DNA of 63,771 nt, the filler included, from Reclinomonas americana ATCC 50394 (taxonomy: Eukaryota): the NCBI GenBank assembly GCA_048213135.1. It is 7 parts of 4 records of this genome, joined end to end, with 100 filler letters (N's around TTAATTAATTAA, not from the genome) between each part and the next. Parts side by side here need not be neighbours in the genome. Positions count along the whole stretch, not along the records: positions 1 to 18,576 come from PS015170.1; positions 18,677 to 30,053 come from PS015170.1; 5 more parts are not named here. One strand, written 5' to 3'. Under the pieces are notes generated by a model. The model made no database searches and was not told where the DNA came from. It saw only the letters and a list, made by a program, of their open reading frames with translations. The position numbers were made by a program, and so were the translations under genes. Positions within the stretch are counted from its first letter, which is position 1; every line of letters begins with the position of its first letter. Below are positions 1,372 through 30,053 of this stretch, piece by piece.

Positions 1372-2068
1372 TTACTTCTTCTCGGCCAACAGCTGCAACA
1401 GCTGGTCGAAACGAGTCTCCAGCCGGTCCAGACGCTCCTGCATCTGTTGCTTCTCGGCTACACATACACGTATAGCACGTGAGAACGCCTGCCAACAAAC
1501 TCAACAACACATTTTCGGGCATGTACCTTGCAACTCGTCGATCGTACGCCGGTGTTCCTCGATAATGAACCGATTCTCTTCGATAACTTGCTGCTGTTCC
1601 TGCAGCGCCTGTACCAGCACTGCCGACAGGTGGCTGTACTTGACAGCCAGCAGTGGTTCCGGTTGCGAGTTGTCTGCTGCCGCCATCTCGGCCAGCATAT
1701 CGCGAATGCGAGCAGACTCCGGGATCTCCGTCACGAGCTCTGGCATGACGTCGCGCACCTGTTGCGCCAACAGGCCGACTTCAGTGTGCCCCATCTTGCC
1801 CAGTCGGAGTGCCTACATCGATCAGAAGAAAACCGAGTGAGCGGCTGTGCACACGAACGAGACAAGTAGCAAGTCAACAGCAGCGTACCTCGGCAGTCTC
1901 ATTCCACTCGAAAGCCACGGCGTTCAGGCGAGCCACACGCGCCATGGCGGGACCGGCAAGCGGGATGCGGGGCAACGTGCTTCGCGTGCTGGACGTGGCG
2001 CGTGTGCCATTTGAGGTCTCCCAAGCGACAGACAGCGAGACCACGTCGCGCTTCAGGCGCATGTCAGA
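1372..2068 (-). other. Peptidase_S74 / intramolecular chaperone auto-processing (ICA) domain plus terminal coiled coil
   Basis: S-D-x-R-L-K motif (Ser codon 2068-2066, Lys codon 2053-2051), FEW, GLLAQQV..PELV and Y..L..VLVQALQE motifs. Interrupted by two spliceosomal introns. Confidence 0.9.
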
Positions 2069-5000
2069 CGGGAATGTGACGGCCGACGTCATCGGATCGA
2101 TCGTCGTGTTTCCGCTGTGATACAGCGTGACTGTTTGCTGAGTACCGAGTCCGTAGTCCACAGTAACATCGCTGCTCGACAATGCTGTGGTCTGCGTGTC
2201 CGAATCATCGGCGGGTCAGACTCGCTGGTGCTACCATCAAGAACACCACTAGACGAAAAGACAGTTTCTGACGCACCCCTCCGATAATGAGGTCCTGCAA
2301 TGTCGTGGTGCCACCCGCGTTAATGTTGCCGGCTACAATCAGAAGCTTGGTGTTGTCGGAGACCTGGAAGAAAACAAGTACACAACGTGAGCAACTGAGG
2401 CGGAGCAACAACAACAATGACGCTTGCTCACCGTCAAATTGCCCGCAATATCCACATCCTGCTGCACTGACACACTGCCACCGACGGCCAAGTTCACATT
2501 GGCGTTGAGCTGATGGACACGCAATGCATGTCAGGTGCGAGACTAAAGGAGTTTGTATATATATAGACAACGACAAACGCAACAGTGACATCGGCGGAGA
2601 ACGTCGACTGCCCGCTGACCAGCAGCGTTCCAGCAAGATTAAGCGACGAACTATTGTTTGTCAGCGACACGGAGCCCGCAAAGGTACCGGAGCCGCTGAC
2701 GGTGAGCGGGCCACCAACATCCAATGAATTGGTGCCGGTGATAATGACAGAACCACCGAAGCGTGAGGTGCCAGACGCCACACTCAGCTCGCCGACGCCC
2801 GTAACCTAATGCGAACGCACAACAAATCGGGGCACACACTTGAAGTGAGTCACCAGTTTCTCTTCCCCAACACCAGGGCATAGAATGCAAAAAAGAGACG
2901 AACCGAAAGGTTGCCGCCCATAGTAAGCGTGTTGGTTCCACTCAGTGTTACGCTGTTGTTGAACGTAGTGGCTCCAGTGACAGCCAGCGGCCCAGACGCA
3001 GTCAGCGAGCTACCACTTGCCACAGTAACGTTGCCGTTCAAAGTACTCGTGCCACCGACAGTCAGATTGTTCGAGTTGTTGAGCACCAGGTTCGTGTCGA
3101 CGCCGCCGACCACAGAAATTGCGCCAGTGAACGTACTGGCACCCGTGACCTGCAGCGTACCACCCACCGCAAGATTCTTGCTAGCCGCAATCTGAAACAA
3201 CATCCAACAATTTCTTGGTCAGCTGCGATCTCTCAATTGACTGCGGGACGTGTGAACGACTCACGGTCACATTGTCGTTCAAGTTGGTGACGCCGCTGAC
3301 AGTGAGAGTGCCACCCACAGTCGCGTTGTTGCTCAGCGTTGCTGCCCCTGTCACCTACTCACCGAGAAGTGGTCAGGCAACCTTACAAACGACCCAGAAA
3401 ACAGACAGACAACACACCGCAATGCTGGACTGAAGTGTGGCAGCTCCAGTGACGTTGATGGTGCCGCCGATGGTTGCGTTGCCGCCCACATTGATCGACT
3501 TGCTGCCAGAGATCTGCGTGTCCATGTTCCCCAAAGTCAGCAAACCCCTCCCGGTACACGACCCGAAAATGAGCAATCCCACTCACAGTCACATCGTCAG
3601 CAAATGTCGACGTGCCAGTCACAGCCAGTGTTGTGCCGATCGACGCCGTTGTCGTCGTCGTCAGCGATCCAGTCTACAACACCATTCAAAATCAGCACAA
3701 CTTCGATCTTCCATCCTCGACACAAAGCGAGCAAACGCAACAGCAAGCAGGCCAGTGACAGTCGCTCCGCCACTCGCAGTCAGAGGACCAGTGACGCTCG
3801 CCGACCCACTCACAGTCAGGTTGTTGGTGACCTGCACAGACAAGTAAGTACCGATGTATACGAGCATCCAGAGCAAACACTCTACTCCACTAACCCCGAC
3901 AGTCGATCCGAATGTCGCCGCCCCACCCACAGCCAACGTGGCAGGCGACGTGATGCTGACGTTGCCGTCCAGACGCGTCGTACCACCCACAACAAGCTTC
4001 GCGCCAAGCGTGGCATCTCCAGTCAGCGATGTGGTGCCCGCCACCGACAGCGACGAGCCAGAGTCGATGGTGACGTTGCCGCTCAGCGTCGACACACCAT
4101 CCACCTTCAGTGACCCTTGCGAGCGCAGCGTCTTGGCAGCACCAGTCAACTGTTGTCGACAAATGCACAGTGAGCACTTGAATGAACCGAGTGCGCAATG
4201 CACAACAATGATAAACTTACCGTCAGGTTGCCAGCGAATGTCGCGTCACCCGTGAACTGCAATGCGAAAAGAACGGAGACATACACCATCTGTAAGCATA
4301 CACACTCGACTACACATAGAGACACCCAGGTCATGGACGAAACGGCCGACGTTCCAGTGACACCAAGAGTGCCGCCGACAGTGGCGTTGCCGTTCAACGC
4401 AGCGAGTCCAGAGACCTGCATATCGAACACGTCAGCAAAAGTTTACAGGCACAATGATCACCACCACCACCACGTTGCCGCACCGTGATGGTCGTCAATG
4501 TTGATCCGCCAGTGACATTGAGTGTGCCGCTGATGGTAGCATTGCCGCCCACATTGATCGACTTGCTGCCAGAGATCTGCGTGTCCACGTTCCCCCAAGT
4601 CAGTAAACCCCTCCCGGCACACCACCCGAAAATGAGCAATCCCACTCACAGTCACATCGTCAGCAAATGTCGACGTGCCGGTGACAGCCAGTGTTGTGCC
4701 GATCGACGCCGTTGTCGTCGTCGTCAGCGATCCAGTCTACAACACCATTCAAAATCAGCAATTTCGATCTTTCATCCTCGACGCACAGCGAGCGGACGCA
4801 ACAGCAAGCAGGCCAGTGACAGTCGCTCCGCCACTCGCAGTCAGAGGACCAGTGACGCTCGCCGACCCACTCACAGTCAGGTTGTTGGTGACCTGCACAG
4901 ACAAGTAAGTACCGATGTATACGAGCATCCAGAGCAAACACTCTACTCCACTAACCCCGACAGTCGATCCGAATGTCGCCGCCCCACCCACAGCCAATGT

Positions 5001-28700: not shown

Positions 28701-30053
28701 NNNNNNNNNNNNNNNNNNNNNNNNNNNNNNNNNNNNNNNNNNNNNNNNNNNNNNNNNNNNNNNNNNNNNNNNNNNNNNNNNNNNNNNNNNNNNNNNNNNN
28801 NNNNNNNNNNNNNNNNNNNNNNNNNNNNNNNNNNNNNNNNNNNNNNNNNNNNNNNNNNNNNNNNNNNNNNNNNNNNNNNNNNNNNNNNNNNNNNNNNNNN
28901 NNNNNNNNNNNNNNNNNNNNNNNNNNNNNNNNNNNNNNNNNNNNNNNNNNNNNNNNNNNNNNNNNNNNNNNNNNNNNNNNNNNNNNNNNNNNNNNNNNNN
29001 NNNNNNNNNNNNNNNGGACACGGTGGAAACAACAGGTGTGAGTGGGTCGACAACATGTTACCTTGCTGCTGGCCGGTCGAATGGTAACGTCGCCGGAGCT
29101 GCTCTGCAGCAGAGGCGCGGTGATTTGTGTGGCCGTCATGGAATTCATGGTGACTGCGCCAGTCAGTGTGGTCGTAGAGTCAACCGTAAGCTGCGATGTT
29201 GCACCGCGGTAAGCAACACTCAGCCAAGAAGGAAAGAATAGCAAAGAGACCATCCGAACTACATACCGAACCCAGCACACGAGTTGGTCGACCGGCGGCG
29301 GCCAGCGACAGTTGGCTAACGTCTCCACCAATGACAATGGGAGTGGTGTTGACTGCGAGGATGCTCACACCCTGGTTGGCGTTGACCGTGAACAGTGCAC
29401 CCTGCACCAACACCTCGCGTGTGCGGTACAAGTTGGCACCGAGAACCACACGTCCGTTGGTGGACGGACTCTGACCGGCCTCAATCTGCAAGTCACCGCC
29501 AGTGCCGGACGCCACTGTCGGGCGACGAAGCGTGAACGTGGACGAATCGGTGGCACCAAACTCCACAAAGGCGCCAGTGGACAGGATTTTACCCGTTGAG
29601 AGGGTAATATCGCCGCCAAAGGTGCTAGTCGACGAGGTGGTTAGTGTGGCCGTGGAGAGTGCGTTCGTCACGGAGACAGTGGACGAAGCGAGCTGAATCG
29701 CGGAGCCAGACTGGCCAATGACGACAGTTGACACACGACGGGTGGCGATTCGCACTGCACCGTGAGTCGCCAATCCAGCACCGCCGTCCAAGAGCCTGCA
29801 AACGACCAGTGTGCGTGTGAGAAACTGTCAAGTACACAGAGGAGCACCGGAAGAACGAAACAGTTGACCGCCAACACCCTGAGTGGCCTGCTGTCCTTCG
29901 AGCATCGTGTCGACGCCAGCAACACCAGAACCGGTTTGTGTAGGACGAGACAGGGTGACGGTGGAAGCCACTTTTCCCAAACGAATAACGTCACTCGACG
30001 CCAGCAGTGTGAGATCACCACTCGACGTCGACACTGAGCCCGTCACCAAGCCG
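1372..30053 (-). CDS. Giant multi-exon T/G/V/S-rich beta-repeat fibre protein with C-terminal Peptidase_S74 intramolecular chaperone and coiled coil (5' end not resolved)
   Basis: Dozens of minus-strand exons with LxVxGxxTxxGxVT-type repeats, joined by short GT-AG introns. C-terminal exons read FPSDMRLKRDV...AMARVARLNAVAFEWNETAE|ALRLGKMGHTEVGLLAQQVRDVMPELVTE...AVKYSHLSAVLVQALQEQQQVIEE...ELQ|AEKQQMQERLDRLETRFDQLLQLLAEKK*, with TAA at 1374-1372. Continuity across N gaps and the 18621 spacer is inferred. Confidence 0.8.
3427..9165 (-). repeat. Intragenic tandem repeat, ~1.06-kb unit (6 exons + 6 introns, ~210 aa), at least 5 copies
   Basis: Marker TTGATCGACTTGCTGCCAGAGATCTGCGTGTCC recurs at ~3491, 4554, 5983, 7772 and 8835. 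Spacing is ~1063 nt between the first two and last two markers. Intron sequences are also nearly identical between copies. Confidence 0.9.
13647..13744. repeat. (CA)n and (CT)n microsatellite in intron
   Basis: Direct inspection. A similar (GA)n tract lies at 11023-11070. Confidence 0.95.
16250..19160. repeat. Array of ~68-aa protein repeats (NRIPxxxFYTDxxxVLAS..LxLG...EPLRIPTLxMHxNxFLMEAYTSAxFG), about 12-13 visible copies, intron-free
   Basis: About 8-9 copies in the 13669..18033 minus ORF, ~2.5 in the flipped contig 18025-18576 (+) and ~2 in 18677-19160 (-). Copies are divergent at DNA level. Confidence 0.85.
18621..18632. other. Artificial contig spacer TTAATTAATTAA (also at 30098, 37356, 45043, 56552, 62223)
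   Basis: Identical 12-mer with stops in all six frames, flanked by N runs on both sides each time. Confidence 0.95.

Follow-up and report, generated by a model that had tools for sequence, protein, structure and literature searches.

Trimerization followed by self-cleavage is established for the intramolecular chaperone (ICA, or Peptidase S74) domains of endosialidases, other phage fibers and MYRF, as set out in the accessible portions of two accounts (PMC3742443, PMC3828593). In MYRF, the first of these accounts assigns the catalytic dyad to S578 and K583, at least in the part available. Within the literature we searched, the characterized cellular eukaryotic use of this phage chaperone is the MYRF/MrfA family, where the domain works as a release switch. 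A second group of S74-terminated proteins, modular fibers of up to 3.9k amino acids (aa), is described from polinton-like viruses integrated in protist genomes, and the introns mentioned for those viruses in the accessible text are group I only (PMC12220804). Polinton-like viruses of Tetraselmis also encode tail-fiber proteins, according to the available part of 10.1101/2025.10.09.676808. Here, we analyze a locus on the minus strand of a 63,771-nucleotide stretch (the window) of the draft genome of Reclinomonas americana ATCC 50394 (GCA_048213135.1), where a very long, intron-rich repeat gene appears to end in an S74 domain. With moderate confidence, and judging from the sequence, we read it as a real nuclear, spliceosomally spliced gene, probably single and 5'-truncated by the assembly, whose ~90 exons would encode a fiber protein of at least ~6,200 residues ending in S74/ICA, an unusual domain for a cellular gene to end in. 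The original prediction, likewise made from the sequence, recognized no described system like this one; that is too strong, given the modular S74 fibers of polinton-like viruses. Our literature search found no cellular, spliceosomal-intron-bearing S74 fiber gene, although host-like genes of a similar kind might appear in the supplementary files of PMC12220804.

The S74 domain occupies the last 183 residues of the predicted protein, after ~6,000 residues of beta repeats, and it is the only one in the window, with no second C-terminus. The original prediction had placed a chaperone with SDMRLK, GLLAQQV, PELV, YSHLSAVLVQALQE and a coiled coil at this end, split by spliceosomal introns, and these elements are indeed present. 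SDMRLK lies at 2068-2051, its Ser and Lys having the five-residue spacing of the MYRF dyad and being aligned with SDxRxK of the relatives described below. GLLAQQV..PELV and YSHLSAVLVQALQE are in the exon 1812-1527, and two GT-AG introns (1888-1813, 76 nt; 1526-1458, 69 nt) interrupt the region. The two halves of the domain match Pfam PF13884 in the correct order, with 15.5 bits over profile positions 1-18 and 19.5 bits over 38-58. Eighteen PHROG families, 17 of them tail and one unknown, also match exon 1812-1527 at their extreme C-termini; the best is phrog_14572 (E 1.3e-11), with an alignment that reaches the end of the profile. Using an ad hoc S74 hidden Markov model (HMM) built from the S74 ends of ten PF13884-bearing relatives of the fiber body, we obtained 42.3 bits for the spliced C-terminus and 14.7 and 27.3 bits for the separate exons, where the best of 2,000 shuffles reached 7.6. 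A scan of IMG/VR returned five phage loci (L001-L005) whose fiber open reading frames (ORFs) have ends 32-36% identical to exon 1812-1527; in VGL(L/S)AQQVRDVMPE(L/V)V, 13 of 14 residues are identical with phage fiber ends. One of these loci, L003, belongs to a T4-like myophage and encodes a 1,759-aa S74 fiber beside sheath, tube and baseplate genes. A word search with the S74 exon among longer proteins gave no match, and neither this exon nor the body repeat had a relative among prokaryote genome contigs. No transmembrane segment follows the domain, the protein ending in a charged coiled coil and a stop codon; the Trimer_CC match in the last exon is weak (16.6 bits, below the cut-off). By profile, dyad and position, the predicted product is a member of the S74/ICA family.

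The extent of the gene was modeled by splice-aware dynamic programming with GT..AG introns and a codon model trained on the obvious exons. The model was run on each N-free contig with its ends left open, and the three 3' exons were added by hand. One exon chain spans each contig from edge to edge, from 30053 to 1372, and no contig requires a start or stop codon. In total, the model holds 96 exon segments and 6,215 resolved residues (93 body segments with 5,991 aa, and three C-terminal exons with 224 aa), which makes the predicted figure of over 6,000 aa a fair estimate. Among the 84 modeled GT-AG introns, the 81 gap-free ones from the automatic model have a median length of 71 nt (range 44-160). 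Donor position +5 is G in 57 of the 84, the commonest acceptor is TGCAG or CGCAG, and introns differ from exons in T content (33% versus 22%) and G+C (51% versus 59%). Retention would introduce a stop or shift the frame for 71 of the 84. A further intron, within a 23-residue insertion in the chaperone after SDMRLKRDVVSL, was considered and rejected, because none of the candidate GT..AG spans (53 or 62 nt) would preserve the frame. A six-exon block of ~1.0 kb is repeated in tandem between 3265 and 9496, in five copies or more. Codon differences among the copies are mostly synonymous (synonymous to nonsynonymous 13:1, 12:1 and 8:2, and 44:27 for the oldest pair); the modeled frame therefore appears to be under purifying selection, and the locus does not look like a dead pseudogene. 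The whole locus would give a single transcript.

Minus-strand frames rich in T, G, S, V, N, A and L succeed one another from 30053 to 2500, and fiber-like coding runs from the scaffold edge at 30053 down to the stop codon TAA at 1374-1372. The body consists of 16.7% T, 13.5% S, 12.2% G, 10.8% A, 10.0% V, 9.5% L and 5.9% N, with Cys and Trp at 0.1% each. The original view of the body as a very long beta-repeat fiber is supported. N-glycosylation sequons are modestly enriched (123, versus 103 +/- 7.8 in shuffles). An extracellular, possibly glycosylated fiber would fit what is seen: Cys and Trp are almost lacking, charge is very low, and S and T are abundant.

Three zones can be distinguished within the body. 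Zone 1, at the 5' side, holds ~2,200 residues with a weak periodicity of ~230-260 residues and introns in mixed phase. It has no significant Pfam family, and one of its exons gave ESM Atlas feature scores of 0.90 to uncharacterized clusters labeled Eukaryota / Chlorophyta, which is a lead only. Zone 2, from 19144 to ~16200, is built of at least 12 units of a 67-residue repeat, EPLRIP..FG..NRIP..YTD..LG (autocorrelation at lag 67 of 0.244, versus a mean of 0.069). This repeat appears to be an orphan: it had no relative by word search or by phmmer among 1.84 billion representatives, no match in viral contigs (profile search) or in metagenome contigs, and its best ESM Atlas score, 0.79, is at noise level. 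AlphaFold2 models residues 191-460 of P0001, the open frame of the giant exon, as stacked long hairpins with floppy loops (predicted local distance difference test score, pLDDT, 70.0; predicted template modeling score, pTM, 0.73). Zone 3, from ~16100 to 2277, is a 20/26-residue repeat extending over ~2,900 residues. The 4.2-kb intron-free exon 13771-18004, which probably continues to 19144, belongs to both zone 2 and zone 3. The locus thus sets an intron-free stretch of 4.2 kb (probably 5.4 kb, 13771-19144) against ~55 exons with a median of 90 nt (2277-13615). All 47 internal exons of the 3' zone are in phase 0, with lengths divisible by 3. The short exons seem to hold a single repeat unit or a few apiece, suggesting that the gene grew as exons were duplicated together with their introns. 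Run against the six-frame ORFs of the 63.8-kb window, an HMM of the 20/26-aa repeat matched 33, every one of them a minus-strand ORF within 2497-29364.

For the 20/26-residue repeat, AlphaFold2 (P0001 residues 1041-1370, 330 aa; pLDDT 78.3, pTM 0.70) places three short strands in every ~20 residues, and we read this model as a single-chain, three-sided beta-solenoid with one turn per repeat. If the whole chain were a solenoid, the rod would be ~100 nm long or longer at ~0.48 nm per turn. A three-copy complex prediction of the same segment, run without controls, scored 0.00, with partner pLDDT under 50, which weighs neither for nor against trimerization. P0001 has no Pfam family at E <= 0.1. 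Across 41 exon peptides, Bactofilin (PF04519) matches weakly in six and DUF5649 in three, the best exon reaching ~20 bits on Bactofilin, below its cut-off of 27.9. A structure search of BFVD gave eight matches at E <= 1e-3 (best E 3.7e-7), including proteins of Pyramimonas orientalis virus, a Gaeavirus 'Peptidase S74 domain-containing protein' and a cyanophage baseplate protein; Ostreococcus virus OmV2 (2.3e-3) and Tetraselmis virus 1 (2.0e-2) fell below the threshold.

A word search with zone 3 returned 39 proteins at E <= 1e-3, among them one from Kipferlia bialata. The best is a 2,318-aa protein of Tetraselmis striata (E 1.3e-20), itself a Bactofilin match at 68 bits. PF13884 is present in 10 of the 39, and an eleventh relative (P0003) has an S74-like end that is sub-threshold (20.9 bits with the ad hoc HMM; 21.2 bits with Pfam, whose cut-off is 22). 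A further relative, P0009, joins Laminin_G_3 to S74, an architecture described for polinton-like virus fibers. Another relative, bactofilin-like and 1,566 aa long, adjoins ribonucleotide reductase genes on a viral contig of 281 kb. A viral-type origin of the gene is plausible given two likenesses, that of the body to algal giant-virus and phage proteins and that of the S74 exon to T4-like phage fiber ends (32-36% identity). The proposal of a domesticated nuclear gene of viral type thus held up in part: the neighbors are cellular, and the origin is made plausible by the likeness to giant-virus and phage proteins.

These features are suggestive of a mechanism in which the chain would fold into a long beta-solenoid rod, and the S74/ICA domain would bring three chains into register and fold the adjacent C-terminal end of the fiber. 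Once trimeric, the domain would cut itself off between FP and SDMRLK by means of the Ser-Lys dyad, releasing a fragment of ~183 residues and leaving a mature trimeric fiber. Trimerization and autocleavage are here extrapolated from the behavior of the domain elsewhere, and the bulk of the rod could be three parallel solenoids or a single one. A virus of the host's lineage is the probable source of the gene, which would subsequently have expanded as blocks of exons, introns included, were duplicated in tandem. We offer as a tentative proposal, one that we would not yet back over its alternatives taken together, that a virus-type S74 fiber gene was captured by a cellular eukaryote, filled with introns and inflated by exon blocks, and that it yields a self-maturing trimeric rod of more than 6,000 residues and at least 100 nm that is used by the cell. 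Such a rod might be a surface hair, an adhesive fiber or a decoy against viruses with the same fiber type. More generally, a surface, adhesive or other structural role may be supposed.

Several observations count against this interpretation. On the side of the chaperone, each half of the domain, taken alone, falls below the 22-bit Pfam cut-off. Compared with its relatives, the domain carries the 23-residue insertion after the dyad and another of ~17 residues after PELV, which might impair it. Searches of the PDB with each S74 half (phmmer) gave no significant ICA match; with a small S74 profile, the first entry was MYRF 7dc3_A, at a non-significant E of 0.49. On the side of the body, the repeat modeled is predicted to fold alone, as a single-chain solenoid, which gives no indication that most of the fiber is an intertwined triple beta-helix of the phage kind. 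Foldseek found no PDB match for either model at E <= 1e-3. As for the gene model, retention of 13 of the 84 introns would leave the reading frame intact, which makes some exon borders uncertain. Thirteen N gaps and an artificial scaffold join lie within the gene, and gene boundaries could be concealed there. Its 5' end is absent from the assembly, and with it the start codon and any signal peptide; because the N-terminus is missing, export is only a guess, and the originally proposed roles in a thread, hair or extrusome are likewise speculative. Lastly, the inversion of a 552-bp contig, if real rather than a scaffolding error, would break the gene; we regard a misoriented small contig at 18025-18576 as likelier than a real inversion.

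Whether the locus is one gene or several is the weakest point of our reading, and the assembly bears on it directly. The window, a gapped draft of an intron-rich eukaryote, has 34 N runs. Six identical spacers of the form N44-TTAATTAATTAA-N44 (18577-18676, 30054-30153, 37312-37411, 44999-45098, 56508-56607 and 62179-62278) place, between two N blocks, a 12-mer with stops in all six frames. Separate scaffolds have therefore been concatenated, the window being seven of them end to end, and the reality of any feature that crosses a spacer depends on the true order of concatenation. The 28.7 kb could hold two or more tandem or mis-joined paralogous fiber genes, of which only the 3' one, confined at most to scaffold 1-18576, ends in S74, the single gene being an artefact of repeat-driven scaffolding; we judge this outcome unlikely though well worth reckoning with. 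Such a composite would be in line with the 14 N runs at the locus (including the two at 30054-30153, just outside the interval) and with the 3,434 N among the 28,682 bases of 1372-30053. It would also agree with the TTAATTAATTAA spacer, which shows that scaffolds 1-18576 and 18677-30053 were concatenated, with the inverted contig, which sits between a 20-N gap and that spacer, and with imperfect local scaffolding, as seen in a WD40 gene cut by the gap at 786. The S/T-rich zone, moreover, is unlike the 3' zone in repeat type and intron phase. Against several genes stand the edge-to-edge exon chains, in which no contig calls for a start or stop, and the single S74 domain. The 67-aa repeat, otherwise without relatives, occurs on either side of the join, closing scaffold 18677-30053 and opening scaffold 1-18576 with its orientation preserved. 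At another spacer (37312-37411), a RasGAP domain (35914-36525, +, E 2.1e-18) is followed by a divergent CRAL_TRIO_2 domain (37414-37821, +, E 1.5e-06); because this keeps the domain order of a neurofibromin (NF1)-like gene, the order of concatenation seems to reflect real adjacency.

The trimeric rod itself can also be questioned. The body might be a monomeric beta-solenoid surface or wall protein, with S74 serving mainly for autoproteolytic processing and no trimeric rod being formed. The AlphaFold2 repeat model, a self-sufficient single-chain solenoid, points in this direction, as do the nearest PDB folds of that model, which are not significant and are led by the monomeric autotransporter, Ag43, curli and antifreeze beta-helices; MYRF, in the accessible text of PMC3742443 and PMC3828593, shows eukaryotic reuse of the domain for release. 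Yet the catalytic residues of endosialidase are thought to be correctly positioned only upon folding and trimerization (PMC3742443, in the part available), and the ICA domain of MYRF is also described as acting as a homo-trimer. If the analogy holds, the C-terminus at least would have to be trimeric for cleavage to occur here. Nor is there a membrane anchor after the domain from which anything could be released. We consider a release switch of this kind improbable.

A remnant of an integrated polinton-like or giant virus, decaying or still serving the virus, would be expected from the S74-terminated fibers common in protist-integrated polinton-like viruses (PMC12220804), the Tetraselmis virus tail fibers (10.1101/2025.10.09.676808), the Tetraselmis striata protein as best sequence relative of the body and algal giant-virus proteins as its best structural relatives, but it is very improbable in view of ~84 spliceosomal introns (only group I introns being mentioned in the accessible text of PMC12220804), intron-bearing cellular neighbors without a hallmark family in 150 flanking ORFs, the dominance of synonymous changes between duplicated blocks, and a size ~1.6 times that of the largest fiber reported there.

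The features of the single spliced gene that we favor are collected in Table 1. Beside the giant exon, the intron that follows it contains (GA)n and (GT)n microsatellites at ~13650-13770, adjoining a 31-N gap; in the open frame these read ERERER... and CVCVCV....

Table 1. Parts of the fiber locus and of the assembly around it, in window coordinates
Feature	Position	Strand	Basis
Last exon: ~27-residue coiled coil (EKQQMQERLDRLETRFDQLLQLLAEKK) and stop TAA at 1374-1372	1372..1457	-	sequence read
Intron, 69 nt, GTACAT..GTGTAG, in chaperone region	1458..1526	-	splicing keeps the frame into the coiled coil
Exon: C-terminal S74/ICA half (GHTEVGLLAQQVRDVMPELV ... LAVKYSHLSAVLVQALQE) and helices	1527..1812	-	PF13884 19.5 bits, profile 38-58
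Intron, 76 nt, GTACGC..GATGTAG, splitting the S74 domain	1813..1888	-	removal restores a collinear S74 match
Exon: last fiber residues, predicted cleavage site between FP and S, dyad SDMRLK, N-terminal S74 half with the 23-residue insertion	1889..2191	-	PF13884 15.5 bits, profile 1-18
~55 short exons (median 90 nt), 20/26-residue repeat 'GNVSITxxxxLSVGGxSTFx'	2277..13615	-	gene model
Giant intron-free exon, 1,411 aa, open frame P0001	13771..18004	-	first ~600 aa 67-residue repeats, rest 20/26-residue repeat
Small contig, 552 bp, 67-residue repeat, 183 aa, inverted	18025..18576	+	frame 2 fully open; aligns with other units
Artificial spacer N44-TTAATTAATTAA-N44	18577..18676	none	joins two scaffolds within the gene
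Start of 67-residue repeat, open to scaffold end, probably same giant exon	18677..19144	-	aligns with other repeat units
Zone 1, ~38 exons, S/T/A/V/L-rich, cut by scaffold end	19223..30053	-	gene model
Second artificial spacer	30054..30153	none	5' end of the gene lost here

The surroundings of the gene are those of a cellular locus. The 150 ORFs of at least 85 aa outside it contain 17 Pfam families, all cellular, including urocanase, eIF2A, kelch, kinase, EF-hand, thiolase, RasGAP, U-box, CRAL_TRIO and WD40; viral hallmark families (capsid, packaging ATPase, integrase, polymerase) are absent from these ORFs. Upstream of the fiber gene, a thiolase gene (Thiolase_N, Thiolase_C; 33588-34938, -) has only two or three short introns. 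These are similar in length to those of the fiber gene but few, so the intron density of the latter is far above that of its neighbor. A membrane-protein ORF occupies 31794-33404 on the plus strand; given this ORF and the end of the thiolase gene at ~33588, the fiber gene should start between 30054 and ~31500, position 30053 being a scaffold end and not a gene start. The 520-bp contig 30154-30673, in which no start codon or signal peptide is recognizable, could be an upstream part of the fiber gene or unrelated low-complexity DNA. Its minus-strand open frame is proline-rich (PPSPP, SPSPQPPPP) and its plus-strand open frame glycine-rich. On the other side, the N-terminus of a WD40-repeat protein (~560-785, +) converges on the 3' end of the fiber gene and runs into a 490-N gap at 786. 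Nothing WD40-like was seen from 1276 on, so either the remainder of that gene is absent or the gap is longer than its 490 N. A tandem array of a 15-nt unit (GTCGCTGTCGCTCTC), in 14.7 copies with 82% match, immediately follows the last spacer, at 62279-62501.

If our proposal of a captured, cell-used fiber gene is true, a fiber-building module of phages and giant viruses would have been domesticated as a eukaryotic structural protein that keeps its original job at ten times the usual size. The locus would then also offer a tractable case of gene growth through duplicated, intron-bounded repeat exons, the 47 internal exons of the 3' zone all being in phase 0. Because the body resembles algal giant-virus proteins, it would have a bearing on virus-host exchange in algae. 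Should the locus instead be mis-assembled or a viral remnant, it would serve as a caution about giant genes read from gapped, concatenated scaffolds.

Set beside the known systems, the gene is most readily compared with the phage tailspikes and fibers that carry an ICA domain, such as K1F endosialidase and the fibers of L001-L005. It shares with them the C-terminal S74 domain, the S-x4-K dyad, the trailing helices and a long beta-structured body upstream, and PHROG tail-fiber profiles match at the very ends. Unlike them, it is nuclear, has ~84 spliceosomal introns and is 3 to 6 times longer; the bulk of its body is predicted to be a single-chain solenoid, its body sequence is unrelated to that of the L003 fiber, and no other tail genes are nearby. 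MYRF/MrfA offers the parallel of a cellular eukaryotic gene with an ICA domain and an equal Ser-Lys dyad spacing, and the Pro before the predicted cleavage site also precedes the cleaved Ser in the MRFs (PMC3828593, in the portion available). Here, in contrast, no Ndt80-type DNA-binding domain was found in the 41 exon peptides or the 150 flanking ORFs, no transmembrane segment follows the ICA domain, and what lies upstream is ~6,000 residues of fiber repeat. Lacking both the Ndt80 domain and the membrane segment, the gene is not a MYRF.

The S74 fibers of polinton-like and giant viruses (PMC12220804, accessible text; Gaeavirus, Pyramimonas orientalis virus, TetV-1 and OmV2) are alike in their eukaryotic setting, their very long repeat bodies and the terminal S74 domain, and those of giant viruses also in a similar predicted beta-solenoid structure (BFVD E down to 3.7e-7). 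In contrast, the viral genes are described, in what that text covers, without spliceosomal introns and within 14-40-kb elements that carry capsid and ATPase genes, whereas the gene studied here is larger, and no lectin, collagen or laminin modules were found in its exon peptides. Given its introns, its cellular neighbors and the apparent selection on its frame, it is not a typical endogenous viral gene. With Bactofilin-like and DUF5649 proteins and with bacterial beta-solenoid adhesins (Ag43, autotransporter passengers), it would share a three-sided solenoid of ~20 residues per turn, and relatives of its body reach 68 bits on PF04519. It differs from these in that no exon attains the Bactofilin cut-off and in having a terminal S74 domain instead of an autotransporter barrel. 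Judged by sequence similarity, the combination of a bactofilin-like beta-helix with S74 is an existing, mostly viral or metagenomic class of uncharacterized fibers, within which this gene stands out for its much larger size and its many introns.

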